From an uncultured Chloroflexia bacterium (lineage in GTDB: Bacteria; Chloroflexota; Chloroflexia; QHBQ01; JADMIH01), in contig CAWCNY010000008.1 in NCBI GenBank assembly GCA_963797095.1, forward strand, positions 111,431-175,430: a stretch of DNA of 64,000 bases, in the 5' to 3' direction. Numbering within the stretch: the first letter of the stretch is position 1; every line of letters begins with the position of its first letter. The notes under the pieces were generated by a model. The model saw nothing but the letters and a program-made list of their open reading frames with translations. It did no database searches and had not been told where the DNA came from. Shown one piece after another: positions 895 through 17,989 of this stretch. The translations under genes were made by a program, and so were the position numbers.

Positions 895-2696
895 GCCAGC
901 GCCTCCTCAAGCCCGGTTTGCAGCAGGCTGTAGAAACGAGACCCGGCGTCGGCGCTCAGCTTTTCGCGTGGTCCATATTCAACTATGCGTCCGCCCTCAA
1001 GTATCAGGATATCGTCGGCCTGCTGTACTGTGTGCAAGCGGTGGGCGATAATGATTGCGCTGCGACTACCGCCCCCAGCCGGGTGTAGCAGAAGGTTGAT
1101 GGCCCGCTCCAGCCGCTGTTCGGTGATCGGGTCGAGCCGCGAGGCGGCCTCGTCCAGAATGATCAACCCTGGGTCCCTAAGCAGCAGGCGTGTAAAAGCG
1201 AGCATTTGCGCTTCGCCCGCCGACATACCGCCGCCGCCGACCGTCAGGCGCGTATCGAGGCCCTGCGGCATCGCGCCGATCCAGTCGCTCAGGCCCAGTG
1301 CGTCGAGCGCTGCAGCGATGCGCTCCTCGCTCACCGTGCGGTCGAAGAAAGCGATGTTGTCGCGCAGGGTGGCGCTGAAAAGCTGCACATCCTGCGTGAC
1401 CATGCCGACGCTGGCGCGTAGATCATCGAGCGCGACATCGCGTATATCGACATCGCCTAACCGGACCGCGCCGCGCGAGGGGTCGTAGAGGCGAAACAGG
1501 AGGCGCGTGAGCGTCGTCTTGCCTGAGCCGGTGCGCCCCAGCACGCCAAGCACGCGCCCGGCAGGCAGGTTGAATGTTACATCGCGCAACACCAGCCCGG
1601 CCTCCTTGTCCTCCTCTGTTTCGGCTGAAACCGGCTCATTGTCAGCATAGGCGAATGAGACGCCATCGAACCCGACCGCCAGCGCGCCCTGCGGCAGCGT
1701 CGCCGTTCCCCGGAAGTGCACGACCGGCTGTTTGCGTAACAACTCGCTGATGCGGTTTATGCCGGCGGTAGAGCGTTGCAGATTGGCGCTCTGGATGCGC
1801 AGGTTGTCGAGCGGTCCGGCCAGCATGCTGATATAGGCGACAATCAGAAAGACCGCGCCGATGGTGATCTGCCCCTGCGTGTAGAGGTAAGCCCCGATGC
1901 CAAGCCCCAGCGCCCAACCGATTGCAAAGAGGAGGCTTGTGATGCTCCAGGAGATGTATTCAACCATCTCGACCGAGCGGCGGGTGTTGAGCGCACGCCG
2001 CGTGAAGCCAAATAGCTTCGCGAGCACATAAGGAGTAGCGCCTATTCCTTGAATATCTTCGACACCGGATATGCGTTCCTCGATATAGCCGAACTGCTCA
2101 GCCGACGCCTGGCGCGCGAGGGTCCAGCGCCGCACGCCCAACCCTTGAACGGCGACTGAGGCAGCGATAGCGACGGCAGTATAGAGGGTGAGCGCCAGGC
2201 CGGCCAGCCAATCCTCGAAGAAGAGGAGGGCCAGCACCCCGATGATAAGAAGGCAATTGGTAACCACTCGGATGAGAAGTTGCGAGAAGAAGTCGGCCAG
2301 GCCGGTAACGTCGCCGTCGACGCGTTCGATCAACTCGCCTGGGGTGTGCGTCTTATGAAAAGGCATATCGAGCCGCAGGAGATGCTCGGTCAACGCCGAG
2401 CGGAGGGCGTTGGTGGCGCTCCAGCCGACGTTAGTGCTGATGTAGGCGGTGGTGACCGCGAGCAGCCGTTGGGCCAGGCTGATGGCGATAAAGGCGATGC
2501 CTGAGTAGATCAGCGGCGCAATATCGCTTTGGCGCTGCGTCGCGTCGATGAAATAGCGGATGATCTGCGGATTGATGAGCTGCAAAGCTACGCTGCCGAA
2601 CAGGAGGGCAGCCATGGCTATTACGCGCCCATGCTGGGGCCTTAGATAGGTACCAAGCAACCGGCGATAATCGGCCAGTGGGAGGGTCAAATGCAT
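891..2696 (-). CDS. ABC exporter (TMD+NBD fusion, MdlA/B-like)
   Basis: Six-TM domain followed by Walker A GRTGSGKT, signature-like MSAGEAQ, Walker B IILDEA and H-loop IAHRL. Confidence 0.92.
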   Translation of the reverse strand: MHLTLPLADYRRLLGTYLRPQHGRVIAMAALLFGSVALQLINPQIIRYFIDATQRQSDIAPLIYSGIAFIAISLAQRLLAVTTAYISTNVGWSATNALRSALTEHLLRLDMPFHKTHTPGELIERVDGDVTGLADFFSQLLIRVVTNCLLIIGVLALLFFEDWLAGLALTLYTAVAIAASVAVQGLGVRRWTLARQASAEQFGYIEERISGVEDIQGIGATPYVLAKLFGFTRRALNTRRSVEMVEYISWSITSLLFAIGWALGLGIGAYLYTQGQITIGAVFLIVAYISMLAGPLDNLRIQSANLQRSTAGINRISELLRKQPVVHFRGTATLPQGALAVGFDGVSFAYADNEPVSAETEEDKEAGLVLRDVTFNLPAGRVLGVLGRTGSGKTTLTRLLFRLYDPSRGAVRLGDVDIRDVALDDLRASVGMVTQDVQLFSATLRDNIAFFDRTVSEERIAAALDALGLSDWIGAMPQGLDTRLTVGGGGMSAGEAQMLAFTRLLLRDPGLIILDEAASRLDPITEQRLERAINLLLHPAGGGSRSAIIIAHRLHTVQQADDILILEGGRIVEYGPREKLSADAGSRFYSLLQTGLEEALA

Positions 2697-2717
2697 TTGT
2701 GCTCCTTAAGAAAGATA

Positions 2718-2739
2718 GACCACGGATCGATCCGTGGCC
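2718..2739 (-). terminator. Hairpin followed by a U-rich run just upstream of the ABC exporter RBS (possible attenuator)
   Basis: Perfect palindrome CCACGGATCGATCCGTGG at 2720-2737, followed on the minus strand by TCTATCTTTCTT and then the GGAG RBS. Confidence 0.4.
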
Positions 2740-3233
2740 CTACTCACCTTCTGATATGGTGCGGCCACGAACAGGAGCGCGCCCATGGCCGTTCTTTACT
2801 CTACGGCATATCTTCCGCCAATAACCGGCGTTGCAGCGATGCAGGCCACGCGAACAACGCAAACCGATCTTCCAAATAAGGTATGGAAGGGCGCTATCGC
2901 GAATCGCCGGATCGCTGGCCGTAATCTTTAGCTTTTTACTGCCAGGCGCTCTCCTAGAGATGCTCTCCTGTAACAGGGATAGAGCATCGTATAGTTTGCA
3001 GCATGGTCTTTGACATGTTGAGGCCTCCTTGGCAGAGGTTATAGCGTCGCAATAGGCGCTATAGCCTGACTTGTATGCTTGCAAGTATAGCCGCCTTCGC
3101 CTGATGCCGTATCGGTCGTTGGTCGTAAATCGCGGCGCAAATGAGGGCGCAGAATCTTGTAGGGGTGCTACCAGGCGCAAACGCCAGATAGAAGGAGAAG
3201 GGTTCACGGTTGATTTCAAGGTACAAGTTCTTG

Positions 3234-3358
3234 GCTGCTTGCGCAGGGAGCGCTACGCGCTGCTTGCGCAGGGAGCGCTACGCGCTGCTTGCGCAGGGAG
3301 CGCTACGCGCTGCTTGCGCAGGGAGCGCTACGCGCTGCTTGCGCAGGGAGCGCTACGC
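3234..3358. repeat. Tandem array of 5 x 25 bp GCTGCTTGCGCAGGGAGCGCTACGC (GTAG/REP-like family)
   Basis: Read directly; no spacers. Shares the core GCAGGGAGCGCTACGCGCTGCT with the arrays at 17641 and 54048. Confidence 0.95.
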
Positions 3359-3447
3359 CCTGCTGTGATAGTGCGACTGCCCGGCCTATGGCATCCTTCG
3401 ATGCATCGCACATCGAACAAGAAATGGAGATAAGCTATACTTAAAGC

Positions 3448-4134
3448 ATGGATCTTGAGCTGAATAAGCACCATCAACATGTGTTAGGGTTGGAACAACT
3501 GAGACGCAAACGCGGTTACAAAGAAGGCTGGCTGTACCATCTCTGCCTGGAAAAAGGTTTACTGAGAGAGCTTCAGGAATTGCAACTGGCCGGGCTGGTA
3601 GGTGACCGGGCGGACACTATCGGGGGCCATGCACTCAGGAGCGCGACCTCAATGGAGGTTGGTGGCGAAGGTGAGATCCTTTCGCCCCGCACGTTGCTCA
3701 CCGTTGAGCTTGTGCCCAGCACCTGCTGGTTCTCCAACCTGCGCTCCGAACTAAGCAAAGATCAATGGGACCAGCTAAGACGCCCCATCTTCAAGAGAGC
3801 AGGCAACCGGTGCGAAGTGTGCGGAGGAAAAGGCACCCACCACCCGGTGGAATGCCATGAAGTATGGCAGTATAACGATGAGCAGCATATACAGCGCCTG
3901 GTCGGGTTGGTGGCTCTATGTCCAGCGTGTCACGAAGCCAAACATATGGGCTTCGCCTCAAGCACGGGTAGAGGAGGGCAAGCACGCGCCCACCTGGCGC
4001 GTATGAACGGCTGGAGCATGGACGACGTGGAGCTTTACCTGGAGGCGCAGTTCGAGCAATGGTCGCGCCGTTCGCAGCATGAATGGTCGCTCGATCTTTC
4101 CTGGCTGCACCAGTTCGGCATAAACACCGAGTGA
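3448..4134 (+). CDS. HNH-family Zn-binding endonuclease-like protein
   Basis: CEVC...ECHEVW...LCPACHEAKH matches an HNH core with a CxxC/CxxC Zn site, preceded by an ELVPSTCWFSNLRS motif. Confidence 0.8.
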   Translation: MDLELNKHHQHVLGLEQLRRKRGYKEGWLYHLCLEKGLLRELQELQLAGLVGDRADTIGGHALRSATSMEVGGEGEILSPRTLLTVELVPSTCWFSNLRSELSKDQWDQLRRPIFKRAGNRCEVCGGKGTHHPVECHEVWQYNDEQHIQRLVGLVALCPACHEAKHMGFASSTGRGGQARAHLARMNGWSMDDVELYLEAQFEQWSRRSQHEWSLDLSWLHQFGINTE

Positions 4135-4166
4135 CGAGTAACGAGTAACGAGTGACGAGTAACGAG
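4128..4166. repeat. Heptamer microsatellite (CGAGTGA/CGAGTAA), about 5.5 units
   Basis: Read directly; the first unit supplies the TGA stop of the HNH gene. Confidence 0.9.
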
Positions 4167-4185
4167 ACGCTACGATCTTATGTAT

Positions 4186-5685
4186 CTATGTAAGCGGTCG
4201 CGGGTGGGCGGTCCCTATCTCGGCAGCGAGCCTGTATTGTGCGGCTGCCTTCTGATACTCGCCCCTGGCCCTCAGTATATTCCCGTATGCAAAGGCCACT
4301 ATGTGCGCTAGCTCCACCAGCCCTCTTCCTTGCACAAGTTGATGTGCCTTTTCGAACAGCGCATCGGCCTCACCCCTATGCCCGCGCTCCTCCTCGATCA
4401 GGCCACCTATATGCAATGCTTCCACCTATGCTGTTGTGATATCTATCGGTGGATGGCCTGCGGCAAGCTCCCAGTTCCGAGTCCCGATTTTGCTCCCCCT
4501 CTCCCTCCCTCATCACACATAGACCCAGCGTCGCGTGCTCGGCAGCCTTATCCAGTTCCCCCTTCTGCGGTACAGATCCGCGTAATCGTACTGCAAATTA
4601 CTCAGCAACACCCGATCGTCCGTCGCTTCCAGCATACCGGCGGCCTTTGCCAGCAACTCCTCCGCCTCATCATATCCGGTATGGCGCACAAGAAGTTCCG
4701 CCAGGTGCATACACACAGCAACTGCTCCCACTATATCATCGAGCGCCTCATAAATATGCAGCGCCCGAGCGGCATATACTTTCGCCTGGGGCCAGTCGTT
4801 GTCAGCCTTGTATGCCACAGCCAGCGCCCACAAGAGGCTGGCCTCCCTTTCCACTCCGTTCAGGTCCGCTATCAGCGCTAGGGCTTCTTTATAAGTGGCT
4901 ATGGCCTGGGGCACATCGCGCAGCGCCCAATTGTCGTTTGCCAGATTGTGCAGGATACTGAGGCGCGGGCTGCGGTCTTTCACCACGCCCTTTTCAATGG
5001 AATAGAGGCATTGCGGGTGGTGATGGAGCGCCGCAACCGGCTGTTCCATGAGATAGTATGCCACTCCAAGCATATTACGCACGATCGTGAGCGAGTCCTC
5101 GTCACCGCCAGCCGCCCCCTGGGCTTCCTCCAGGTGAACCTGAGCCAAGTGTGGTTGTGAACGTTGGAGATATGCCAGCCCTCGCAAGAAGTGGGGCCTG
5201 TAGAGTAGGCGTGGGGGCAGTTTCTTGCTGAAGATAGCGGCGCTTTGCTCCGCACACTCAACAAGAGCCAGCGCCATAGATTTCGCCTACCCCACCACCC
5301 GTATTTGATACGCAGCATTGGCTTCGTCGCCACTGCGTATCAACATTCGAGCGTAGTTGTACTGGTAATTGAGGCCCTCCTGTAATGTCTCCAACTCCGG
5401 CTCTCGAAACGCACCACCTATCCCACTACCCTGATCCTGGTAGCAGCTACCTGTGCCTACCGCTATCCCTACCAGGAAGTGCGATAGCGGTAATGCGAGG
5501 CGAGAGGAGATCTACTCCAGCACCTTCAGAGAAGGGCGCACAGCGCCGCGCTCGATCGCGCTCACATACCCCTCGGTGAAACGGGGGCCTGCCAATTGCT
5601 CTTGTGTCAGCCCTTGCTCCTTTCTCGCTTTGCGGATACGAGCGCCGACAACAGACCCAATATTGTGTCGAAACCCTGTGCGCAT
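4186..5685 (-). pseudogene. Decayed XRE-HTH + TPR transcriptional regulator
   Basis: The HTH (RIRKARKEQGLTQEQLA...YVSAIERGAVRPS) is cut by TAG at 5512-5514. The same frame continues through another TAG (~5288) into TPR ORF 4513..5277. There is a frameshift in a G-run at ~4560, then a further shift and TAG before the 4186..4425 fragment. Confidence 0.8.
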
Positions 5686-5967: not shown

Positions 5968-7536
5968 ATGGAGCCAATCCTCCGATGTATCACCGTTTCT
6001 AAGAGATTCGGCTCATTGTCCGTTCTCAGGCAACTTAGTTTTGAAGTTGCGCCAGGCGAGATCGTAGGGCTGGCGGCAGGGCATGGCGACGGTAAGTCGG
6101 TGCTGGCAGCGATCCTGGCGGGTACCGAGGCTCCCAGCGAAGGTGAAGTGTTCATAGCAGGTCAGCGTATGCGCTGGCCCTTCAGAGCGCGCTCGGTGGG
6201 CGTTGAAGTGATCCACCAGGAGCCGGAGTTTGTCGAGCACCTGGACATTACCGCCAACATCTTTCTCGGCCACGAATTGGGCTGGCTAAAAGGATCGCTT
6301 TTGCGACGGCCTGACGAAGCCCGAATGAACCAACTGGCAACCGATGCCCTCGCCCAACTTGACGCTCATGTAGCACCGCTACATGAACCTGTGGTCAACC
6401 TATCGAGCGAGCAACGCCAGCTTATCGAGATCGCTCGCGCGCTGGTGCACCCGGCACGGCTGGTGATCGTAGACGACCCCGCGCTCCCCCTGAGCTATAC
6501 CTACCAGCAAAAACTGCTGTCGGTGGTGCGCTCGTGGCAACAGCAGGGCACAGCGGTGCTCTTTATCAGCAACAATCTCGATCACCTGTTCGCCCTGGCC
6601 GACCGCATTATCGTGTTGCGGCAGGGCACCTGTGTGGCGAACCTGCGCACCGAGGCCACCGACCGCGAGGACGTGGTAGCAGCCCTGGTCGGCACGACAG
6701 ATCGACAGCAGCTTACGCCTATCATCTGGGCTTTGAGCAGCTACTATCGCGCCCGCGAAGAGGCCGAGAAGCTGGGCAACCGCCAGACCCTGCTGAAGCA
6801 AAATCTCGCCGAGCAGATCGCGGCTCTCGACAGCGCCAACCTGGCACTCCAGGATGCCCACCGCCGCTTGCTTACCGAGCGCGAGCAGGAACGAAAGGCT
6901 CTCGCCCGCGAATTGCACGACCAGGTCATCCAGGACCTGTTGAGTATGAACTACCAGCTAGAAGAGGTCGAAGCGGAGAGCCTTCCTGGGCGCGCCGACC
7001 ATTTCGCCGATGGACTGTCAGAGGTACGCGCCGGAATCAGGGGTCTGGTGGACGATTTGCGCCGCATTTGCGGCAATCTGCGCCCGCCCACCATAGACAG
7101 CCTGGGGGTTGGCGCGGCTCTACAATCGTATACTCGCGACTGGTCCGTGCGCACTGGAATCCCCTTGCGCTTTGAACTGGACGAGCGGCTTGGACGCCTT
7201 CCGGAAGCTCTTGAGCTATCGATCTTCCGGATAGTGCAGGAGGGCTTGAACAACATTCGGAACCATGCAGGGGCTACCGCAGTGCAGGTAGCGCTACGCC
7301 GTACTTCGCCCACCGCCGTGACAATCATCGTGTCGGACAACGGTCGTGGGCTTCCCGAGGATTTCGACCTGGCTATGCTGGCCGAGGGGGGTCATTATGG
7401 CGTGCTGGGGATCAGCGAGCGGGTGGCGCTGGTGGATGGGCGGTGGCAGTTCCAGAACCAGCTTGGGGGTGGCACCCTGCTTCAGGTGGAGATACCCCTC
7501 AAGCGAACAAGGGTGAAAGCTGCGAAAGAAAGATAA
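5968..7536 (+). CDS. Fusion of a degenerate sugar-ABC ATPase domain with a NarX-type histidine kinase (HisKA_3 + HATPase_c)
   Basis: The N-terminal ~245 aa align by eye to the ATPase at 11268 (AGHGDGKS, VIHQE, LSSEQRQ, LVIVDDP, ISNNL). A coiled coil leads to the H-box ERKALARELHDQV, N-box QEGLNNIRNHA and G-boxes DNGRG/GHYGVLG. No TM helices. Confidence 0.9.
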   Translation: MEPILRCITVSKRFGSLSVLRQLSFEVAPGEIVGLAAGHGDGKSVLAAILAGTEAPSEGEVFIAGQRMRWPFRARSVGVEVIHQEPEFVEHLDITANIFLGHELGWLKGSLLRRPDEARMNQLATDALAQLDAHVAPLHEPVVNLSSEQRQLIEIARALVHPARLVIVDDPALPLSYTYQQKLLSVVRSWQQQGTAVLFISNNLDHLFALADRIIVLRQGTCVANLRTEATDREDVVAALVGTTDRQQLTPIIWALSSYYRAREEAEKLGNRQTLLKQNLAEQIAALDSANLALQDAHRRLLTEREQERKALARELHDQVIQDLLSMNYQLEEVEAESLPGRADHFADGLSEVRAGIRGLVDDLRRICGNLRPPTIDSLGVGAALQSYTRDWSVRTGIPLRFELDERLGRLPEALELSIFRIVQEGLNNIRNHAGATAVQVALRRTSPTAVTIIVSDNGRGLPEDFDLAMLAEGGHYGVLGISERVALVDGRWQFQNQLGGGTLLQVEIPLKRTRVKAAKER

Positions 7537-7594
7537 AGCATAATAGAGATAAAGCATAATAAGGAAGTCAAATATGGTTGTTAGGAGTTCAACG

Positions 7595-8644
7595 ATGAAC
7601 ACGGCGCGAATAGTGGTTGCCGACGACCACGCGGTAGTGCGGGCGGGGATCGCTAATGCTCTACGGGGTCTATCCAATATTAAGATCGTGGGAGATGCAA
7701 GCGATGGTGAAACGCTGTTGTCCATCCTGGACAAGACACAGCCTGACTTGCTCGTAACCGACATCACTATGCCCAACTTCGAGCCGATTGAGGGTATCGG
7801 TAGCATCCGTGCGAGGTTCCCGAACCTCAAGATCCTCATTGTAAGCGCCTATGACGACGATATGTACATACAGGGACTGCTGAGGGCAGGCGTGAACGGC
7901 TATCATCTAAAAGACCAACCTCTCAGCGACCTGCGATTGGCCGTGCAGCAGGTGTTGGAAGGCAAGATGTGGGTAACAAGTCGCCTCGTTGAGAAACTGG
8001 TGCAAGAGCATAGTACGCCAACACCGGCCCGGGCCCTGACCGCCCGGCAGCGTGATATGCTACAACTGCTCAAACAGGGCCTGGACAATTATGCTATCGC
8101 ACGCCGCACGGGCTTGAGCGTCAAGACCGTAGAAAACCATCTGACGCGCCTCTACCGGCATTTAGATGTCCAGAGTCGCCTTGAAGCTGTCAATTACTGT
8201 ATGCAGCACCCGGAGGTGCTGGGCGATGCGAAGTTGGCTGCCAACCACTTCCAGGCTCTCACTGTGCAAGCTTCCCTCCAGCCGACCATCCTGATCGTAG
8301 ACGATAATACTCGCTATCGCACCCAGATGCGCCGAATGGTGGGCAAGAACTACCCCGAAGCAATGGTGTATGAGGCGGAGAACACCGCCCTCGCGCTGCG
8401 CTTCGTGGGCGAAGTCAAGCCTCGTCTGGTATTCGCCGACGTGGTGCTTGGCGACGAGAATGGCATTGAGTGTGCATCGCAAATTAAGGCCCTTTCGCCT
8501 GCCACCAGGGTCGTCTTGATCAGCGCGTACCCCGACCGTGAATTTCACCGCGCAGGACTCGAAGCAGGGGCGGTGGCCTTCCTGGACAAGAAGGACCTCA
8601 ACAACGCCACACTACGCGAGGTAATAGCTGATCTAGCAGGTTGA
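7595..8644 (+). CDS. NarL-family response regulator with an extra C-terminal receiver (REC-LuxR HTH-REC)
   Basis: REC1 VADDH...VTDITMP, HTH LTARQRDML...SVKTVENHL, REC2 IVDDN...FADVVL...FLDK. AGGAG RBS before ATG 7595. Confidence 0.9.
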   Translation: MNTARIVVADDHAVVRAGIANALRGLSNIKIVGDASDGETLLSILDKTQPDLLVTDITMPNFEPIEGIGSIRARFPNLKILIVSAYDDDMYIQGLLRAGVNGYHLKDQPLSDLRLAVQQVLEGKMWVTSRLVEKLVQEHSTPTPARALTARQRDMLQLLKQGLDNYAIARRTGLSVKTVENHLTRLYRHLDVQSRLEAVNYCMQHPEVLGDAKLAANHFQALTVQASLQPTILIVDDNTRYRTQMRRMVGKNYPEAMVYEAENTALALRFVGEVKPRLVFADVVLGDENGIECASQIKALSPATRVVLISAYPDREFHRAGLEAGAVAFLDKKDLNNATLREVIADLAG

Positions 8645-8650
8645 TCTTAT

Positions 8651-8666
8651 TAGGGGATTTCCCCTA
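8651..8666. promoter_or_regulatory. 7-2-7 inverted repeat TAGGGGA-TT-TCCCCTA, candidate operator for the response regulator
   Basis: Perfect palindrome with NarL-type 7-2-7 geometry between the regulator gene and the transporter operon. Confidence 0.5.
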
Positions 8667-8683
8667 TTCATTTTGGGGGAAAC

Positions 8684-8720
8684 AAGGGTAGCCAAGTTAC
8701 TTCAACTTGGCTACCCTTTA
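8684..8720 (+). terminator. Perfect 15-bp stem-loop, probable terminator
   Basis: AAGGGTAGCCAAGTT-ACTTC-AACTTGGCTACCCTT followed by TATTC. Confidence 0.55.
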
Positions 8721-8991
8721 TTCGACGTACAGGAATTTTATCCCGTGCGGTTTGATGACCGTAGCTATCGCCCTGTTTTCATGCTCCGTTTATCGCGTAG
8801 CGAGCAAGGATCCCGCGCCAACGAGCATCGTCGCAACTCGCCGGAACGGTCAAGAAGGAGGTGAGTCGCCGGAGACACGATGTTTGAAGCCCTATCTATA
8901 GCCCTATCTATATAGGTAGGCATGAGCATGGCCTTGTGACGGCCATTTTGGCAAGAACGAATTTCGATGAAGAAAAACAGGAGGAAAGTTT

Positions 8992-11187
8992 ATGAAACGG
9001 ACAACATCGTTGTTGGCGCTATTGATAATTGTATCTATGCTCCTATCGGCCTGTGGCGCAAATTCGACCCCCACCCCGCTCCCTGCTCCCACAAATACGG
9101 CCGCGCCGGTGGTAGTGCCAACAGACACCACAGCCCCCGCAGCCACAGCCACTACAGCACCTGTGGCCACGGCCACCACCCCGGCGGCGGCAGGAGGCAA
9201 GATAGCCATCCTGCTCCCTGAGACCAAGACAGCCAGGTATGAGAGCCAGGACCTCCCCAACTTCAAGGCCGAGCTCACGGCTCTAGGTTTCGACGTAGAC
9301 AACAATCTGATCTACAGCAACGCGAACCAGGACGCAGCCGCCCAGCAGCAGCAGGCTGAAGCTGCCCTCACTAACGGCGCGAAAGTGCTGGTGCTCGACC
9401 CTGTCGACTCCGATGCCGCTGCCGTGATTGCTGATGCAGCCAAAGCTAAGGGTGTGCCGGTCATCTCTTATGACCGCCTGATCAAGAACACGGATGCTGT
9501 GAATTACTACATCTCCTTCGACAACGAGCAGGTTGGCAAGCTCCAGGGTGAGAGCTTACTGACTGCTCTTGCCGGGGTTACGAACCCAAGCATCGTGATG
9601 ATCAACGGCTCGCCTACTGATAACAACGCTACCCTCTTCAAGCAAGGTGCTCACTCGGTGCTCGATGGCAAAGTAACCATCGCCAAAGAGTACGATACCC
9701 CCGACTGGTCCCCTGACAAGGCCCAGGAGGAGATGACCCAGGCTCTCACCGCCCTTGGCAACAAAGTAGATGGGGTGTATGCCGCCAATGACGGCACCGG
9801 TGGTGGCGCTATCGCTGCCATGAAGGCTGCTGGCATCTCCCCACTTCCTCCAGTCACAGGGCAGGATGCAGAGTTGGCAGCAATCCAGCGTATCCTGGCA
9901 GGTGAGCAGTACATGACCGTCTACAAGGCCATCAAGCCTGAGGCCGAAACTGCTGCCCAACTTGCCTTCATCCTGCTGGGTGGCGGCACCCCTAATACAT
10001 CGAGGATCAACGGCCAGGTCGACAACGGCAAGATCAATGTACCCTCCGTGCTGCTCGTGCCGGTAGCCGTGACTAAAGACAACGTCGCCAGCACCGTCAT
10101 AGCTGACGGTTTCTGGACAGCCGACCAGGTCTGCACAGCCGATTACGCCCAGGCGTGCACGGACGCTGGTATCGGTGGCGGGGGCTCAACAACAGTGCCA
10201 TCAGGCAAGATAGCCATCCTGCTCCCTGAGACCAAGACAGCCAGGTATGAGAGCCAGGACCTCCCCAACTTCAAGGCCAAGCTCACGGCTCTAGGTTTCG
10301 ACGTAGACAACAATCTGATCTACAGCAACGCGAACCAGGACGCAGCCGCCCAGCAGCAGCAGGCTGAAGCTGCCCTCACTAACGGCGCGAAAGTGCTGGT
10401 GCTCGACCCTGTCGACTCCGATGCCGCTGCCGTGATTGCTGATGCAGCCAAAGCTAAGGGTGTGCCGGTCATCTCTTATGACCGCCTGATCAAGAACACG
10501 GATGCTGTGAATTACTACATCTCCTTCGACAACGAGCAGGTTGGCAAGCTCCAGGGTGAGAGCTTACTGACTGCTCTTGCCGGGGTTACGAACCCAAGCA
10601 TCGTGATGATCAACGGCTCGCCTACTGATAACAACGCTACCCTCTTCAAGCAAGGTGCTCACTCGGTGCTCGATGGCAAAGTAACCATCGCCAAAGAGTA
10701 CGATACCCCCGACTGGTCCCCTGACAAGGCCCAGGAGGAGATGACCCAGGCTCTCACCGCCCTTGGCAACAAAGTAGATGGGGTGTATGCCGCCAATGAC
10801 GGCACCGGTGGTGGCGCTATCGCTGCCATGAAGGCTGCTGGCATCTCCCCACTTCCTCCAGTCACAGGGCAGGATGCAGAGTTGGCAGCAATCCAGCGTA
10901 TCCTGGCAGGTGAGCAGTACATGACCGTCTACAAGGCCATCAAGCCTGAGGCCGAAACTGCTGCCCAACTTGCCTTTACCCTGCTGGGTGGCGGCACTCC
11001 CGACGCATCTATGGTCAACGGCCAGGTCGACAACGGCAAGATCAACGTCCCGTCCATTCTGCTCGTGCCGGTAGCCGTGACTAAAGACAACGTCGCCAGC
11101 ACCGTCATAGCTGACGGTTTCTGGACAGCCGACCAGGTCTGCACAGCCGATTACGCCCAGGCGTGCACGGACGCTGGCATCAAGTAA
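8992..11187 (+). CDS. Sugar ABC substrate-binding lipoprotein (XylF-like) with two tandem binding domains
   Basis: Lipobox LSAC, P/T/A linker, then two copies of KIAILLPETKTARYE...ANDGTGGG...TGQDAE...VCTADYAQAC. AGGAGG RBS. Confidence 0.92.
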   Translation: MKRTTSLLALLIIVSMLLSACGANSTPTPLPAPTNTAAPVVVPTDTTAPAATATTAPVATATTPAAAGGKIAILLPETKTARYESQDLPNFKAELTALGFDVDNNLIYSNANQDAAAQQQQAEAALTNGAKVLVLDPVDSDAAAVIADAAKAKGVPVISYDRLIKNTDAVNYYISFDNEQVGKLQGESLLTALAGVTNPSIVMINGSPTDNNATLFKQGAHSVLDGKVTIAKEYDTPDWSPDKAQEEMTQALTALGNKVDGVYAANDGTGGGAIAAMKAAGISPLPPVTGQDAELAAIQRILAGEQYMTVYKAIKPEAETAAQLAFILLGGGTPNTSRINGQVDNGKINVPSVLLVPVAVTKDNVASTVIADGFWTADQVCTADYAQACTDAGIGGGGSTTVPSGKIAILLPETKTARYESQDLPNFKAKLTALGFDVDNNLIYSNANQDAAAQQQQAEAALTNGAKVLVLDPVDSDAAAVIADAAKAKGVPVISYDRLIKNTDAVNYYISFDNEQVGKLQGESLLTALAGVTNPSIVMINGSPTDNNATLFKQGAHSVLDGKVTIAKEYDTPDWSPDKAQEEMTQALTALGNKVDGVYAANDGTGGGAIAAMKAAGISPLPPVTGQDAELAAIQRILAGEQYMTVYKAIKPEAETAAQLAFTLLGGGTPDASMVNGQVDNGKINVPSILLVPVAVTKDNVASTVIADGFWTADQVCTADYAQACTDAGIK
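9196..11181 (+). repeat. Intragenic direct repeat of ~978 bp (9196-10173 and 10204-11181, period 1008)
   Basis: The copies read as identical apart from a change at ~9271, a divergent patch at ~9969-10050 and a synonymous change near the end. Confidence 0.95.
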
Positions 11188-11202
11188 GTAGATCCTAGTA
11201 TA

Positions 11203-11245
11203 ATAGGGGACCGGGGCGGGCTAACACCCTCCCTGGTTCCCTATT
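11203..11245 (+). other. Intergenic stem-loop between the SBP and ATPase genes (mRNA stabiliser or partial terminator)
   Basis: TAGGGGACCGGGGCGGG...CCCTCCCTGGTTCCCTA pairing, a typical position in ABC operons. Confidence 0.5.
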
Positions 11246-11267
11246 GTTCCCTATAGGAGGAACGTCA

Positions 11268-12098
11268 ATGGCGACATCGGAACGCACGCCAGTGCTCGAA
11301 TTACGCGGTATCAGCAAGCGTTTCGGCGCTGTGCAGGCGCTTACCGACGTAAACTTCGACGTATACGCAGCCGAGGTGGTGGGACTTGTGGGCGACAATG
11401 GCGCGGGCAAGTCTACCCTTATTAAATGCATCGCAGGTATTCATCCAATAGATTCGGGCGAGATCTACTTTGAAGGACGGCGCGTAACGATCTCAGGCCC
11501 TAAGGGCGCGCTGCAACTCGGAATATCTACTGTGTACCAGGACCTTGCTCTGTGTGACAACCTGGACGTAGTCGCCAACCTCTATCTGGGCCGCGAAGAG
11601 TCGCGCCCGATCATCCCCGGCATATTCAGCATCGTTAACGAGACAAAGATGGAGCAACGTGCTATCGACGTGCTCCGGGGTCTCTCCGTGACAATTCCGA
11701 GCGTAAGAACACTGATCGCCTCGTTGTCAGGCGGCCAGCGCCAGTCAGTAGCTGTCGCGAGGTCGGTCATGTGGAAGCCCAAGCTGGTTATCCTGGACGA
11801 GCCGACAGCCGCGCTGGGTGTTGCCCAAACTCGTCAGGTTCTGGACCTGATCCGCCGCCTGCGCGAGCAGGGGCTGGCTGTGATCGTGATCAGCCACAAT
11901 CTTGAAGATGTCTTCTCGGTCGTGGACAGGATTAGCGTATTGCGCCTGGGCCGTAACGCCGGCACATTCGATGTCAAGGATGTGAGCTATGAGCAGGTGG
12001 TAGCCGCTATCACAGGCGCGGAGTTCGGGACTTGGGAGCAAGGCGCTCACGAGGCTGAAGACGAGGTGGTTGCCCCGGCAGGAGGTGGAGTGTCATGA
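11268..12098 (+). CDS. Sugar ABC transporter ATP-binding protein (single NBD)
   Basis: Intact GDNGAGKST, VYQD, LSGGQRQ, VILDEPTAALG and ISHNL motifs. AGGAGG RBS before ATG 11268. Confidence 0.95.
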   Translation: MATSERTPVLELRGISKRFGAVQALTDVNFDVYAAEVVGLVGDNGAGKSTLIKCIAGIHPIDSGEIYFEGRRVTISGPKGALQLGISTVYQDLALCDNLDVVANLYLGREESRPIIPGIFSIVNETKMEQRAIDVLRGLSVTIPSVRTLIASLSGGQRQSVAVARSVMWKPKLVILDEPTAALGVAQTRQVLDLIRRLREQGLAVIVISHNLEDVFSVVDRISVLRLGRNAGTFDVKDVSYEQVVAAITGAEFGTWEQGAHEAEDEVVAPAGGGVS

Positions 12099-13309
12099 GC
12101 ACTATGATCGACGATCCACGCCTGATCAAGCAGGAGGCCGGCGGCAACTTCTTCAGCAACCTGCGCAAGCGCTTCGCCTATACCGACCTGGGCCAATTGC
12201 CCGTTTTGATCGGCCTGGTGCTGATCTGGGTGATCTTCCAGTGGGCCAACGCCAACTTCCTCAGCCCCGTCAACCTGACCAACCTGCTTTTGCAAAACGT
12301 GGCAATAGGGATCACGTCGGTGGGCATCACGTTGGTGCTGCTGCTGGGCGAGATCGACCTGTCGGTAGGTGCGGTAAGCGGGCTTACGGCCTCCATCATG
12401 GCCGTCCAAAATGTTAAGAACGGCATGCCCGGCATAGTGGCTATAGGGTTGGCGCTGCTGGCAGGGGCTGTAATCGGTCTTATTCATGGCCTCTGGCTCA
12501 CCAAGTTGCGCGTTCCCGCTTTCGTAGTAACCCTGGCAGGTCTACTTGGCTGGCAGGGAGCGCAATTGCAGGTGCTGGGCACCACAGGCACGGTCAACTT
12601 GCGGGACCCGACCATCACCGGGCTGACGCTCACATTCTTCCCGGCGTTCTGGTCCTGGGTGATTACAATAGCAGCTGTAGCGCTATACGCAATCGGATCG
12701 TTCTGGGAGCGGCAACAACGTGTTTCGGCGGGCCTAGTTTCTATCACCCGCAGCGCCCTTGTAGCGCGAATCGCGGCTGTCAGCATTGGCGTGCTGGCGG
12801 CCACCGCCATATTCACAGCCGACCGTGGCCTCCCCCTTTCCGTGGTGATCTTCCTTGGGGTCATAGTGGTCATGAACACGGTGACCAAGCGCACCAAATT
12901 CGGGCGGTACATCTATGCCGTGGGCGGTAACGCCGAGGCGTCCAGGCGTGCCAGCATCAACGTGGACAACATCCGCATCGCCGTCTTCACACTCTGTTCG
13001 TTACTGGCGGCGTTAGGGGGGGTGATGGCAGGCTCGCGACTCCTTGCGGTGAACCAAAGCTCAGGGGGGAGCGACTTCCTGCTGAACACTATTGCGGCGG
13101 CGGTTATCGGGGGGACGAGCCTGTTCGGTGGGCGGGGCACGGTGTGGGCAGCGCTGCTGGGTGCGCTGGTGATCGGGTCGATCTCGAATGGTATGGATCT
13201 GCTGGCGCTTCCCTCGCCGGTGAAGTTTATGATCACGGGCGGGGTGCTGCTGGCAGCGGTTACTCTGGACGCTCTGATCCGCAGGCGCAGAGTGGCCACG
13301 GGGCGATAA
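12095..13309 (+). CDS. Sugar ABC transporter permease (XylH-like)
   Basis: GEIDLSVG, FGRYIYAVGGNAEASRRA and IAAAVIGGTSLFGGRG motifs; multiple TM helices. Confidence 0.95.
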   Translation: MSTMIDDPRLIKQEAGGNFFSNLRKRFAYTDLGQLPVLIGLVLIWVIFQWANANFLSPVNLTNLLLQNVAIGITSVGITLVLLLGEIDLSVGAVSGLTASIMAVQNVKNGMPGIVAIGLALLAGAVIGLIHGLWLTKLRVPAFVVTLAGLLGWQGAQLQVLGTTGTVNLRDPTITGLTLTFFPAFWSWVITIAAVALYAIGSFWERQQRVSAGLVSITRSALVARIAAVSIGVLAATAIFTADRGLPLSVVIFLGVIVVMNTVTKRTKFGRYIYAVGGNAEASRRASINVDNIRIAVFTLCSLLAALGGVMAGSRLLAVNQSSGGSDFLLNTIAAAVIGGTSLFGGRGTVWAALLGALVIGSISNGMDLLALPSPVKFMITGGVLLAAVTLDALIRRRRVATGR

Positions 13310-16228: not shown

Positions 16229-17989
16229 ATGATCACCGCACCAGTTTCTACCTCAAAACAAATCATATCGCTTGCAGGGCTCGTCCCGAACCCTGATGCG
16301 TTGCTGTTGCTTCAACCCCACGAAGCCTACGCCTGGAAGGTGCTGCCGCTAGGCTGGGAAAAGGAGAAACTGGTCGTCGCCACCCCGCAGCCGCTCGAAC
16401 CCCTCCAACTGAGTATGCTCAGGTTGAGGACCAGGTGGTCGATCATTCAGCGCGTCTGCTCTGAGATAGAGCTAAAGATAGCGCTGGACAAGTATTACGG
16501 CAAGCCAAGCCAGCCCCGGAACACGCTCCGCTCAATCGATCCGCTAGCCTTGTTGCGCGCCCTCGACATAGTGCCCAATGAGGTTGTGCGCCTCGCGCTC
16601 GGCCAGCAAGTCTACAATCGGGACGCCAGCGATAGCTGGCTTGATTGGTTGCAGCACCAGGGAGAGATCAGTGTTGAGCAGGTTACGCTGCTACGGGCGG
16701 CCCAGCACAACCGCCCCTACCTGCGCGTCACCCGGTTCAGCAGCCCACCCGGATTGGCCGTAATCGTCCCCGCGCTGCTCGCTGCTCGTTGGAATGCTGT
16801 GCCGTTCTATGCGGACGCCCATCGAGTATGGGTATATACGCCGGGCGATTCCCCGCTCCTGAATCCTGACGAGTTGTCGCGCACAGTTGGCCTTGAGGTG
16901 CGCCCTGTCTTCGTTACCAGGACCCAATGGGACATAGCCTTTATCCGCCTCTATAAAGGAGCGCAATCGCAATCCGGCCCGGCGCACACCGTAGACCACA
17001 TCCTCACAAATGAAGACTGGCTCAGCGCCTCCCAGAAGGCCCAGGCGCGTGAAGTGACGCGCCGCACCGGCACCCCCATATCTGCTCTGGCTCGCGGGAA
17101 AGGGTGGCTGGCAGAGCAAGATTGGCACAAAGTCGAGGCCCGCCGCTGGGGCCTCATCCCAGGTTACGAGGCGAAACCAGGTGATACCGCTACCCTGCAA
17201 GGGCTATCTTTCACAATCGATCTCTGCAAGCATTGGGGGGTGGTACCTCTCGCGTTGCGCGAAAATGACCTGCACATCGGCCTCTCTCAGACCGCACAAA
17301 GCCAGTTGATCTCGGCTGTATCCGCCATTACAAAGCACCCTGTCCACGCGCACCTGCTTACCAAAGAGCAATACAAACGAGCCTGGAGCCTCTATTTCGA
17401 GCAAGACCGTAATATAGTCTCGCCGGTGCCTACACTTGACGAGTGGCTCCTGGCCGGGGTGTATACCACCGCGGACCAGATGGAAAAAGCCCTGGAACAC
17501 GGCCAGGCCGAGAAGAAGCAGTTGGATGAAAGCCTTCTCGCGCTCGGCCTTGTAAGCACCACCGACCTCGCCGAGGTATTGAGCCTGCAAAGTGACCTCC
17601 CCTGGTTCCCCCTTGAAAACCCACCGCGCCCACTCTCCCTGGAGCAGCGCGTAGCGCTCCCTGCGGAGCAGCGCGTAGCGCTCCCTGCGGAGCAGCGCGT
17701 AGCGCTCCCTGCGGAGCAGCGCGTAGCGCTCCCTGCGGAGCAGCGCGTAGCGCTCCCTGCGGAGCAGCGCGTAGCGCTCCCTGCGGAGCAGCGCGTAGCG
17801 CTCCCTGCGGAGCAGCGCGCCAGGCTTGGTATGGCTCGCACAGTGGTGCCGTTGGTCGACCTCGGACGCTCACCTGATGGGGTAAAATCGGTGCTTGTGG
17901 CCGTGTCCGACCCATATGAATTGAGTGGGCAGAACAAAGGAGACCCGGAGGACGAAGGACAAAGGCCGGAAGGCGAAGGAGAGTTCTGA
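16229..17989 (+). CDS. Tandem MshEN/T2SSE_N-domain region; probably the N-terminal part of the GT2 synthase (frameshifted)
   Basis: Repeated modules (VLPL..LVVATPQP; AVPF..VWVYTP; VVPL..LHIGLS; VVPL..VLVAVSDP) with degenerate MshEN helices such as PTLDEWLLAGVYTTADQMEKALEHGQ. The last domain is cut after VAVSDPYEL. Confidence 0.75.
   Translation: MITAPVSTSKQIISLAGLVPNPDALLLLQPHEAYAWKVLPLGWEKEKLVVATPQPLEPLQLSMLRLRTRWSIIQRVCSEIELKIALDKYYGKPSQPRNTLRSIDPLALLRALDIVPNEVVRLALGQQVYNRDASDSWLDWLQHQGEISVEQVTLLRAAQHNRPYLRVTRFSSPPGLAVIVPALLAARWNAVPFYADAHRVWVYTPGDSPLLNPDELSRTVGLEVRPVFVTRTQWDIAFIRLYKGAQSQSGPAHTVDHILTNEDWLSASQKAQAREVTRRTGTPISALARGKGWLAEQDWHKVEARRWGLIPGYEAKPGDTATLQGLSFTIDLCKHWGVVPLALRENDLHIGLSQTAQSQLISAVSAITKHPVHAHLLTKEQYKRAWSLYFEQDRNIVSPVPTLDEWLLAGVYTTADQMEKALEHGQAEKKQLDESLLALGLVSTTDLAEVLSLQSDLPWFPLENPPRPLSLEQRVALPAEQRVALPAEQRVALPAEQRVALPAEQRVALPAEQRVALPAEQRVALPAEQRARLGMARTVVPLVDLGRSPDGVKSVLVAVSDPYELSGQNKGDPEDEGQRPEGEGEF
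17641..17820. repeat. Tandem array of 7.5 x 24 bp GGAGCAGCGCGTAGCGCTCCCTGC, in frame inside the CDS (EQRVALPA repeats)
   Basis: Read directly; same family as 3234-3358. Confidence 0.95.

Follow-up and report, generated by a model that had tools for sequence, protein, structure and literature searches.

Soluble histidine kinases of Chloroflexota headed by a degenerate CUT2-type ABC nucleotide-binding domain

A stretch of 64,000 nucleotides from an uncultured Chloroflexia bacterium (contig CAWCNY010000008.1 of assembly GCA_963797095.1, positions 111,431–175,430 of the forward strand), hereafter called the window, was analyzed. Calling of open reading frames (ORFs) revealed five genes arranged head to tail on the + strand between window positions 5968 and 13309, to which all coordinates below refer. 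They encode a histidine kinase, a response regulator, a sugar-binding protein, an ATPase and a permease (Table 1). The kinase is the main subject here. Its N-terminal part is a nucleotide-binding domain (NBD) of the ATP-binding cassette (ABC) type, resembling those that power sugar importers of the CUT2 class. The genome of origin, 6.02 Mb in 8 contigs and 93% complete, contains one copy of this kinase.

The kinase and the state of its nucleotide-binding domain

Three domains were recognized by Pfam in the kinase and nothing else: ABC_tran (PF00005) at residues 20–172 (69.7 bits for a cutoff of 25), HisKA_3 at residues 308–374 (48.7 bits, cutoff 24) and HATPase_c at residues 416–512 (36.5 bits, cutoff 26.4). 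A preliminary description of this DNA had stated that the protein has no transmembrane (TM), PAS or GAF input. This was borne out, as Pfam detected neither PAS nor GAF in the kinase and no membrane helix is expected from a hydropathy test, the highest Kyte-Doolittle mean over 19 residues being 1.21. The start codon fits the family consensus MEPLLR. With both kinase domains above their cutoffs, a phospho-acceptor histidine and the N and G boxes, the protein is a HisKA_3 histidine kinase. Its kinase half matches the NCBIfam models MctS, UhpB, NarX and LiaS, all below their equivalog cutoffs, and carries an ELHD box at the phospho-acceptor histidine. The nearest solved match to the catalytic domain is the ATP-binding domain of VraS (4gt8, E = 2.2e-6).

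The identification of the N-terminus as a sugar-ABC NBD was likewise upheld by the ABC_tran match and by an alignment with the neighbouring ATPase over 243 residues (33% identity, E = 2e-43). Residues 2–243 align with the N-terminal halves of AraG (E = 3.6e-44) and XylG (E = 3.4e-42) in NCBIfam. The best of these matches, to AraG, reaches 150.9 bits where the equivalog cutoff is 689 and involves the N-terminal half only, so that the domain does not rank as a CUT2 ATPase equivalog. The NBD had also been described as matched to the neighbouring ATPase; this did not hold, since it is 36% identical to another CUT2 ATPase encoded on a different contig of the same genome.

A model of the kinase was computed with AlphaFold2 (AF2) using 47 relatives as input, with a mean predicted local distance difference test score (pLDDT) of 83.5 and a predicted template modelling score (pTM) of 0.54. 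In this model, the NBD (residues 1–241) is followed by an unbroken helix (246–337), a second helix (344–371) and the catalytic domain. In the 47-sequence alignment, residues N97, F99, G101 and E103, which follow the Q-loop, are invariant.

The architecture is widespread. A word-index protein search returned 2623 relatives among 8000 scored candidates. The same three domains, ABC_tran, HisKA_3 and HATPase_c, are present in all of the best 120 of these 2623 relatives, at 59–100% identity; their names are automatic only, such as 'ATP-binding cassette domain-containing protein' or 'signal transduction histidine kinase'. When one genome per species was searched, a relative was found to be encoded in 478 stretches, each from a different species genome. 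The 80 that were analyzed all bear Chloroflexota names and span Anaerolineae, Caldilineae, Ardenticatenaceae, Chloroflexia and several Candidatus filament genera, which we take to belong to Chloroflexota. In an evenly drawn sample of 401 Chloroflexota genomes, the window's own included, the kinase was counted as present upon a full-length match with E of 1e-90 or better, which was the case in 26 genomes. That the fusion is an accident of the assembly, or unique to it, was rejected on the basis of the 120 best relatives and the 478 species genomes.

Motif states were counted over 80 rows, consisting of the window and 79 loci (designated by L numbers), the truncated L080 being left out. Relative to the neighbouring ATPase, GDNGAGKST becomes AGHGDGKSV in the Walker A motif, LSGGQ becomes LSSEQ in the signature, DEP becomes DDP in the Walker B motif and SHN becomes SNN at the H-switch; VIHQE and LDITANIFLGHE are kept. 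The preliminary description had listed all these changes as alterations of catalytic motifs, and all are present, but that of the Walker A motif is mild. AGHGDGKS retains Gly-Lys-Ser and still counts as a Walker A motif (GxxGxGK[ST]), and the replacement of its first Gly by Ala, at residue 37, occurs in the window copy alone (1 of 80 rows). Across the family, 75 of 80 rows have the Walker A Lys, 70 the first Gly and 72 the Q-loop Gln, the retention of the Q-loop region having been correctly noted for the window. By comparison, the His of the H-switch is absent from all 80 rows, being replaced by Asn in 42, as in the window, by Asp in 17 and by other residues in 21. The second Gly of the signature is also absent from all 80 (Glu in 75), and LSSEQ in the window does not conform to LSGGQ. 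The residue following the Walker B Asp is Glu in 34 rows, Asp in 31, Asn in 9 and another in 6; the window has Asp in place of the catalytic Glu. Conservation of the degenerate motifs therefore holds for the signature and the H-switch, but not for the Walker A change or for the loss of the catalytic Glu. The phospho-acceptor His and the kinase boxes are conserved in the family.

These sequences point to a Walker A motif that is mildly altered rather than disabled. As the Lys-Ser of the P-loop, the Asp of Walker B and the Gln of the Q-loop are kept, binding of ATP is likely retained. As the whole family lacks the H-switch His and the second signature Gly, and the catalytic Glu is Asp in the window copy, there would be no consensus hydrolytic site. 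It is instructive to compare the transporter ATPases of the related loci. Their 28 double NBDs are asymmetric, with one consensus and one degenerate site: the N-terminal half has good Walker A and Walker B motifs and the His but a degenerate signature (LGVGK), whereas in the C-terminal half the signature (LSGGN) is good, but Arg replaces the Walker A Lys, Glu replaces the Q-loop Gln and the His is missing. In the 23 single NBDs, of the type found in the window, all five motifs are mostly canonical. In the kinase NBD, a degenerate signature occurs together with the loss of the His, and this NBD should therefore form no consensus site either as a homodimer or with a real ATPase. The conserved Glu of the signature argues for selection rather than decay. 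Decay of the window copy in particular was considered and rejected: it differs from the family in 12 of the 156 conserved columns, against a median of 5 (rank 4 of 80), but the changes are largely conservative and its kinase boxes are intact.

Table 1. Positions of the genes, domains and sites discussed (window coordinates)
Feature	Position	Strand	Evidence
NBD-kinase, 522 aa	5968..7536	+	ORF; Pfam domains; AF2 model
Degenerate CUT2-type NBD, residues 1–241	5968..6690	+	Alignment to neighbouring ATPase; NCBIfam AraG/XylG N-terminal half; family motif counts; comparison with NBDs of related loci
Walker A	6076–6102	+	
Q-loop Gln	6217–6219	+	
Signature LSSEQ	6400–6414	+	
Walker B Asp-Asp	6472–6477	+	
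Asn replacing H-switch His	6571–6573	+	
Continuous 92-residue helix, residues 246–337, from NBD to first helix of the dimerization and histidine phosphotransfer (DHp) domain	6703..6978	+	DSSP on AF2 model
Phospho-acceptor His317	6916–6918	+	Invariant in 80/80 rows
Kinase catalytic and ATP-binding (CA) domain, residues about 400–510	7165..7497	+	Pfam HATPase_c 416–512; N, G1 and G2 boxes conserved in family
Response regulator, receiver (REC)-LuxR(GerE)-REC, 356 aa	7574..8644	+	Pfam Response_reg in two stretches and GerE
Terminator-like hairpin after regulator gene	8651..8666	+	Consensus scan only; such sites no more numerous than in shuffled sequence
Two-copy tandem 12-mer overlapping a palindrome, about 70 nt upstream of binding-protein gene	8888..8920	.	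Candidate operator
Secreted double sugar-binding protein, 731 aa, two Peripla_BP_4, XylF/ChvE-like	8992..11187	+	Pfam, NCBIfam
Genuine single-NBD CUT2 ATPase, 284 aa, all catalytic motifs canonical	11244..12098	+	Pfam ABC_tran, 105.9 bits
CUT2 permease, 404 aa, BPD_transp_2, GguB/XylH-like; putative docking partner of kinase NBD	12095..13309	+	Pfam, NCBIfam

Transporter genes around the kinase

Genes at the related loci were assigned to classes by ORF calling followed by BLASTP against references from the window and the loci. Forty-three loci extend for 5 kb or more on each side of the kinase gene, and a CUT2 permease, a binding protein and a REC-LuxR-REC regulator are each encoded in 42 of these. 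In all 80 loci, shorter flanks included, the numbers are 68, 66 and 72, respectively. Co-occurrence with CUT2 transporters, which had been put forward as a check, is thus the rule, and the fusion is neither confined to one assembly nor unlinked to transporters.

The arrangements vary. Counting the 79 loci and the window, a permease, with or without a binding protein, lies directly upstream of the kinase with no NBD gene in between in 22 rows. The order permease, binding protein, kinase, single ATPase, permease is found in 8 rows; in 4 others the kinase directly follows the permease of a complete double-NBD transporter. A double-NBD transporter is adjacent in 20 rows and a single-NBD transporter in 16, the latter figure including the window as well as some calls that are fragmented or doubtful, for instance L037 and L066. 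Nothing was seen in 9 rows, nearly all on short contigs, and 1 row is cut at a contig end.

An orphan permease, without an ATPase gene of its own, is thus encoded directly upstream of the kinase in about 30 of the 79 loci. According to Pfam, the order in L010 is regulator, 338-residue BPD_transp_2 protein, kinase, and that in L032 is permease, binding protein, kinase, ATPase, permease. In two loci (L007 and L011) the gene upstream of the kinase encodes a fusion of permease and binding protein, which in L011 is 710 residues long and directly precedes the kinase. The orphan permeases are 53–96% identical to that of L010 or 68–93% identical to that of L032. In the 401 genomes, the four closest orthologues of the L010 orphan permease (at least 55% identity) are all encoded 1–2 kb upstream of a kinase gene. 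Matches at 40–52% identity also occur in genomes devoid of the kinase, and the permease type is therefore not exclusive to it. In eight loci of 11–22 kb (L011, L016, L021, L027, L029, L038, L047 and L075), the only NBD gene is that of the kinase.

These neighbourhoods bear on two other roles that the NBD might fulfil. It could be a free cytoplasmic sensor of nucleotides, dimerizing on ATP and reporting the energy charge without contacting any permease. ATP-driven dimerization of NBDs is the basic ABC mechanism, the Lys-Ser of Walker A and the Asp of Walker B are kept, and one of the analyzed kinase genes (L088) lies away from transporter genes. Such a sensor is nevertheless quite improbable, given the permease and binding protein in 42 of 43 long loci, the location of orphan permeases, and of fusions between permease and binding protein, immediately upstream of the kinase, and the conservation of the Q-loop and the segment that follows it, which have no role in nucleotide binding alone. 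In addition, 75 of 80 rows have Glu in place of the signature Gly, the residue that closes the ATP sandwich.

Alternatively, the NBD-kinase could be the working ATPase of an importer built on the orphan permease, and would signal while transporting. No other ATPase is encoded near the orphan permeases, the Walker A Lys is present in 75 of 80 rows and the catalytic Glu in 34. We regard this as very improbable, because none of the 80 rows has the H-switch His or the second signature Gly, the catalytic Glu is Asp in the window, and a homodimer would contain two degenerate sites where canonical CUT2 ATPases have one consensus site.

At the window locus, the neighbours of the kinase make up a CUT2 importer, with Peripla_BP_4 and BPD_transp_2 both present, and NCBIfam places the parts with importers of xylose, arabinose, ribose and multiple sugars. 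The ATPase has one NBD and not the two fused NBDs of canonical CUT2 transporters. It is 57–64% identical, and the permease 42–46% identical, to those of other single-NBD loci. This permease gene is the only one of the CUT2 class near the kinase; the others in the genome are at a canonical locus on another contig (C3). No orphan permease was found in the genome, 93% complete as it is, the best matches, at 34–35% identity, being the two permeases of that canonical locus. The window lineage thus appears to have lost, or never had, a dedicated permease, and the sole candidate partner nearby is the permease of the transporter itself. A shared permease is a plausible partner since the kinase gene directly follows a transporter permease gene in L089, L068, L069, L070 and L073.

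Orthologues of the single-NBD ATPase are found in 103 of the 401 Chloroflexota genomes, a tally that takes in the unpublished genome G173, whereas the kinase is found in 26, which implies that the transporter works without the kinase. This matters for a third alternative, in which one kinase NBD and one copy of the genuine ATPase would sit together on the permease, and the kinase would read the cycle of an active importer, as BceS reads BceAB. The single-NBD nature of the window ATPase, in place of the usual CUT2 double, leaves room for such a mixed dimer, and the 8 rows with the order permease, binding protein, kinase, ATPase, permease hold exactly two NBDs and two permeases. However, the mixed dimer would lack a consensus site, as the degenerate signature would face good Walker motifs and the site without His would face a good signature. 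A dimeric kinase would moreover bridge two transporters, the ATPase has no need for the kinase judging from its distribution, and the arrangement is impossible in the eight long loci with a permease and a kinase but no other NBD gene. This flux sensing is considered unlikely. That the real ATPase and the kinase NBD must always pair in a mixed dimer was likewise judged unlikely, from the distribution in the 401 genomes and from the motifs.

Following its LuxR DNA-binding domain, the regulator carries a second complete receiver. All 65 family regulators compared (the window and 64 related loci) have the acceptor Asp in both receivers, and the other active-site residues are also conserved. Upstream of some regulator genes, a CCTA-N7-TAGG frame hints at a possible operator: of its 14 occurrences in the 1.27 Mb of loci, 7 lie within 320 nt upstream of regulator genes (L017, L024, L047, L048, L056, L068 and L069). 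The site in the window is spaced differently.

Between the two halves of the binding-protein gene (9195–10179 and 10203–11187), DNA identity is 97.7% over 985 nt, indicating a very recent duplication or conversion. Double and triple binding-protein fusions recur in related loci, with three domains for example in L022, L040, L041 and L046. In L019 and L020, at about 2230–4560, genes for a binding protein and a permease (43% and 42% identical to those of the window) are situated after a complete double-NBD transporter, with no ATPase gene belonging to them and a convergent gene next in line; they resemble an orphan pair with a permease of the type found in the window. In some single-NBD loci, a gene of secreted type with FG-GAP/ASPIC-UnbV domains lies between the permease and the kinase (L028, 8214–9959; L046, 7266–9035). 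It had no match in the genome of the window, an empty result that shows little. Further along the window, an ORF of 586 residues (16229–17989) has eight tandem copies of ALPAEQRV near its C-terminus.

Proposed docking on the permease

It is proposed, with a confidence slightly above even, that these proteins are soluble HisKA_3 kinases with a CUT2-type NBD as their input, the NBDs docking on a CUT2 permease dimer as a non-hydrolysing receptor head. HisKA_3-class kinases are dimers, and the Q-loop region of ABC ATPases contacts the coupling helix of the permease. The kinase dimer would present two NBDs that bind ATP without hydrolysing it, and these would occupy the usual place of the ATPase on the coupling helices of the permease dimer. 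Binding of the sugar-loaded binding protein would set the conformation of the permease and thereby alter the spacing of the two NBDs, which the continuous helix 246–337 could relay to His317. The phosphorylated REC-LuxR-REC regulator would then control the adjacent operon of binding protein, ATPase and permease. In many relatives, the partner would be a dedicated permease without its own ATPase. In the window, it would be the transporter's own permease, shared with the genuine ATPase, so that one pool of permease imports and another signals.

The preliminary description had left open whether the pseudo-NBD replaces one or both copies of the ATPase. Linkage in the family, the orphan permeases, the degeneracy in all 80 rows and the 92-residue helix are consistent with docking as such; the window itself lacks an orphan permease. 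The replacement of both copies is likelier than that of one, as the kinases are dimeric and no consensus site would be formed with a real ATPase.

A complex of the permease and kinase residues 1–250, both supplied as alignments, was predicted. The outcome was rated 'weak support', with a score of 0.49 (runs of 0.46, 0.49 and 0.49), the best of three controls scoring 0.00. The runs share at least 78% of their contacts, and the pLDDT of the partners is at least 77. The mark set for the complex score is reached by 58 of 80 solved complexes and by 2 of 110 mismatched pairs; at scores of 0.60 or less, it is reached by only 7 of those 80 solved complexes and by both mismatches. As no solved relative of the permease was found by sequence, it is less likely that the prediction merely reproduces a similar complex. 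The modelling that had been suggested earlier therefore gave a signal above its controls, but a weak one, and for residues 1–250 of the kinase. Together with the gene neighbourhood, it suggests that the kinase NBD may dock on the XylH-like permease of the window.

The kinases of rows with an orphan permease (31) and of rows with a transporter only (40) were compared column by column. Positions 85, 87 and 108, beside the Q-loop, rank third, second and sixth among the columns that differ.

Several observations weigh against the proposed docking. The complex score is weak, and a score of this kind would be expected for any CUT2 NBD. The catalytic Glu retained in 34 of 80 members makes some hydrolysis possible. 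The absence of an orphan permease from the window's genome also counts here, since the window kinase groups with L001 and L002 (support 99, FastTree), where the order is regulator, binding protein, double ATPase, permease, orphan permease, binding protein, kinase; the partner of the window kinase may thus have been lost rather than replaced. This 'orphan' permease of L001 and L002 is encoded after a complete transporter, of which it could be the second permease. The 40 columns that differ most between the two classes of kinases are spread over the whole protein and confounded by descent (10 in the Q-loop and helical region, 8 in the CA domain, 7 in the DHp domain and 7 in the linker). No single chain combining permease, NBD and kinase was found among three matches to longer proteins, which is weak evidence.

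Two loci depart from the linkage as such. No permease is encoded within 10 kb in L063, which is the exception among the long-flank loci for both permease and binding protein. In L088 (genome G223), neither transporter nor regulator genes occur within 9.5 kb on either side of the kinase gene. Around 9602–11203, the neighbours encode a radical SAM protein, an RNase H, AhpC, a LacI regulator, a PTS EIIA-HPr-EI fusion and PfkB. This is the sole neighbourhood analyzed from family f3, in which the kinase is present in 7 of 7 sampled genomes. The single-NBD ATPase is encoded 467 kb away from the kinase in the same genome; in a sister genus, the two genes share a strand, with that of the ATPase some 1.3 kb upstream. 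On balance, the model of the preliminary description is supported for the family, and is plausible but unproven for the window locus.

CUT2-like NBDs also head other proteins, represented here at 50% identity: a GAF-HisKA kinase (P0209), PAS-HisKA_3 kinases (P0138 and P0172) and a regulator with MalT-like tetratricopeptide repeats (TPR) and a LuxR domain (P0260). Their signatures are mostly degenerate. Such proteins suggest that the NBD is a reusable input module. More tentatively, and with rather less than even confidence, the degenerate CUT2 NBD may be a general plug-in that turns a binding protein and a permease into a surface receptor for several cytoplasmic outputs, the bound ATP serving as glue and not as fuel. 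The window kinase would have given up a dedicated permease to time-share that of a working single-NBD importer, the pool being split between transport and signalling.

If the proposal is correct, a large class of receptors, named so far only by machine, exists in Chloroflexota, a phylum abundant in soil, sediment and activated sludge, and ABC NBDs can be reused as signalling input domains. The kinases would offer a tractable system to study both the communication between the membrane domain and the NBD of ABC transporters and the switching of a HisKA_3 kinase by helix motion. The series leading from a dedicated sensor permease to a shared transporter permease would constitute a natural evolutionary experiment.

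Comparison with known systems

The architecture is real, conserved and uncharacterised, and is a variant of transporter-coupled sensing. Full-text literature searches and one review yielded no account of a fusion between an ABC NBD and a histidine kinase, subscription journals and supplements lying outside this coverage.

The NBD matches the N-terminal halves of AraG, XylG and RbsA, and the neighbouring Peripla_BP_4 and BPD_transp_2 proteins and ATPase are those of CUT2 importers (RbsABC, XylFGH, GguAB/ChvE, AraFGH). It differs from the ATPases of these importers by its fusion to a histidine kinase and by the lack of the H-switch His, the signature Gly and, in the window copy, the catalytic Glu. 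With the HisKA_3 kinases NarX, DesK, LiaS, VraS, UhpB and MctS, the NBD-kinase shares the ELHD box and a LuxR-type regulator as partner. Unlike them, it has no TM helices or HAMP domain, and its regulator has a second receiver after the DNA-binding domain.

In the MalK-MalT system of E. coli, the NBD of an ABC importer passes the status of the transporter to an activator of the LuxR family. The output would be similar here, and the related fusion of an NBD to a MalT-like TPR-LuxR protein (P0260) exists. MalK, however, is an active ATPase that binds MalT non-covalently through an extra C-terminal domain, with no phosphorelay. In ChvE-VirA, LuxP-LuxQ, TorT-TorS and XylFII-LytS, the ligand signal reaches a kinase by way of a periplasmic binding protein, also of this fold class, which touches the periplasmic domain of the kinase. 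The NBD-kinase has no extracytoplasmic part, and the permease must therefore stand between the binding protein and the kinase.

The preliminary description held that the known cases of co-sensing by transporters and kinases use separate proteins. This was incorrect, as transporter parts are fused to kinases in KsAmt5 (PMC8534201) and in CbrA/CrbS (PMC7096432, PMC5715377). The transporter part of KsAmt5 is reported to serve as a receptor, binding its substrate without translocating it (PMC8534201). What is fused in KsAmt5 and CbrA/CrbS is the membrane domain of a secondary or channel-type transporter, whereas the NBD-kinase carries the cytoplasmic ABC engine only. It has no TM segment, and thus no membrane domain in the same chain, the permease being a separate protein.

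The Bce modules are likewise close. BceS is reported to have no sensor of its own, to depend on BceAB for its input and to regulate the transporter genes (PMC9169098, PMC3023708, 10.1101/2020.02.28.969956, PMC8534201). The NBD-kinase also lacks a sensor of its own and would rely on an ABC transporter, to which it is linked by gene neighbourhood. BceS, however, is a membrane protein in its own right, with two TM helices, and BceAB is of exporter type, with an active ATPase. The NBD-kinase is soluble rather than a separate kinase with two TM helices, is covalently joined to its NBD, and is associated with an importer-type permease, not one of FtsX type, and a binding protein. How the motion of the transporter reaches the kinase is still unclear even for Bce systems, as stated in PMC8534201. 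The coupling proposed here would be covalent and structurally simple, passing from the coupling helices of the permease through an NBD dimer and one long helix to the phospho-acceptor histidine.

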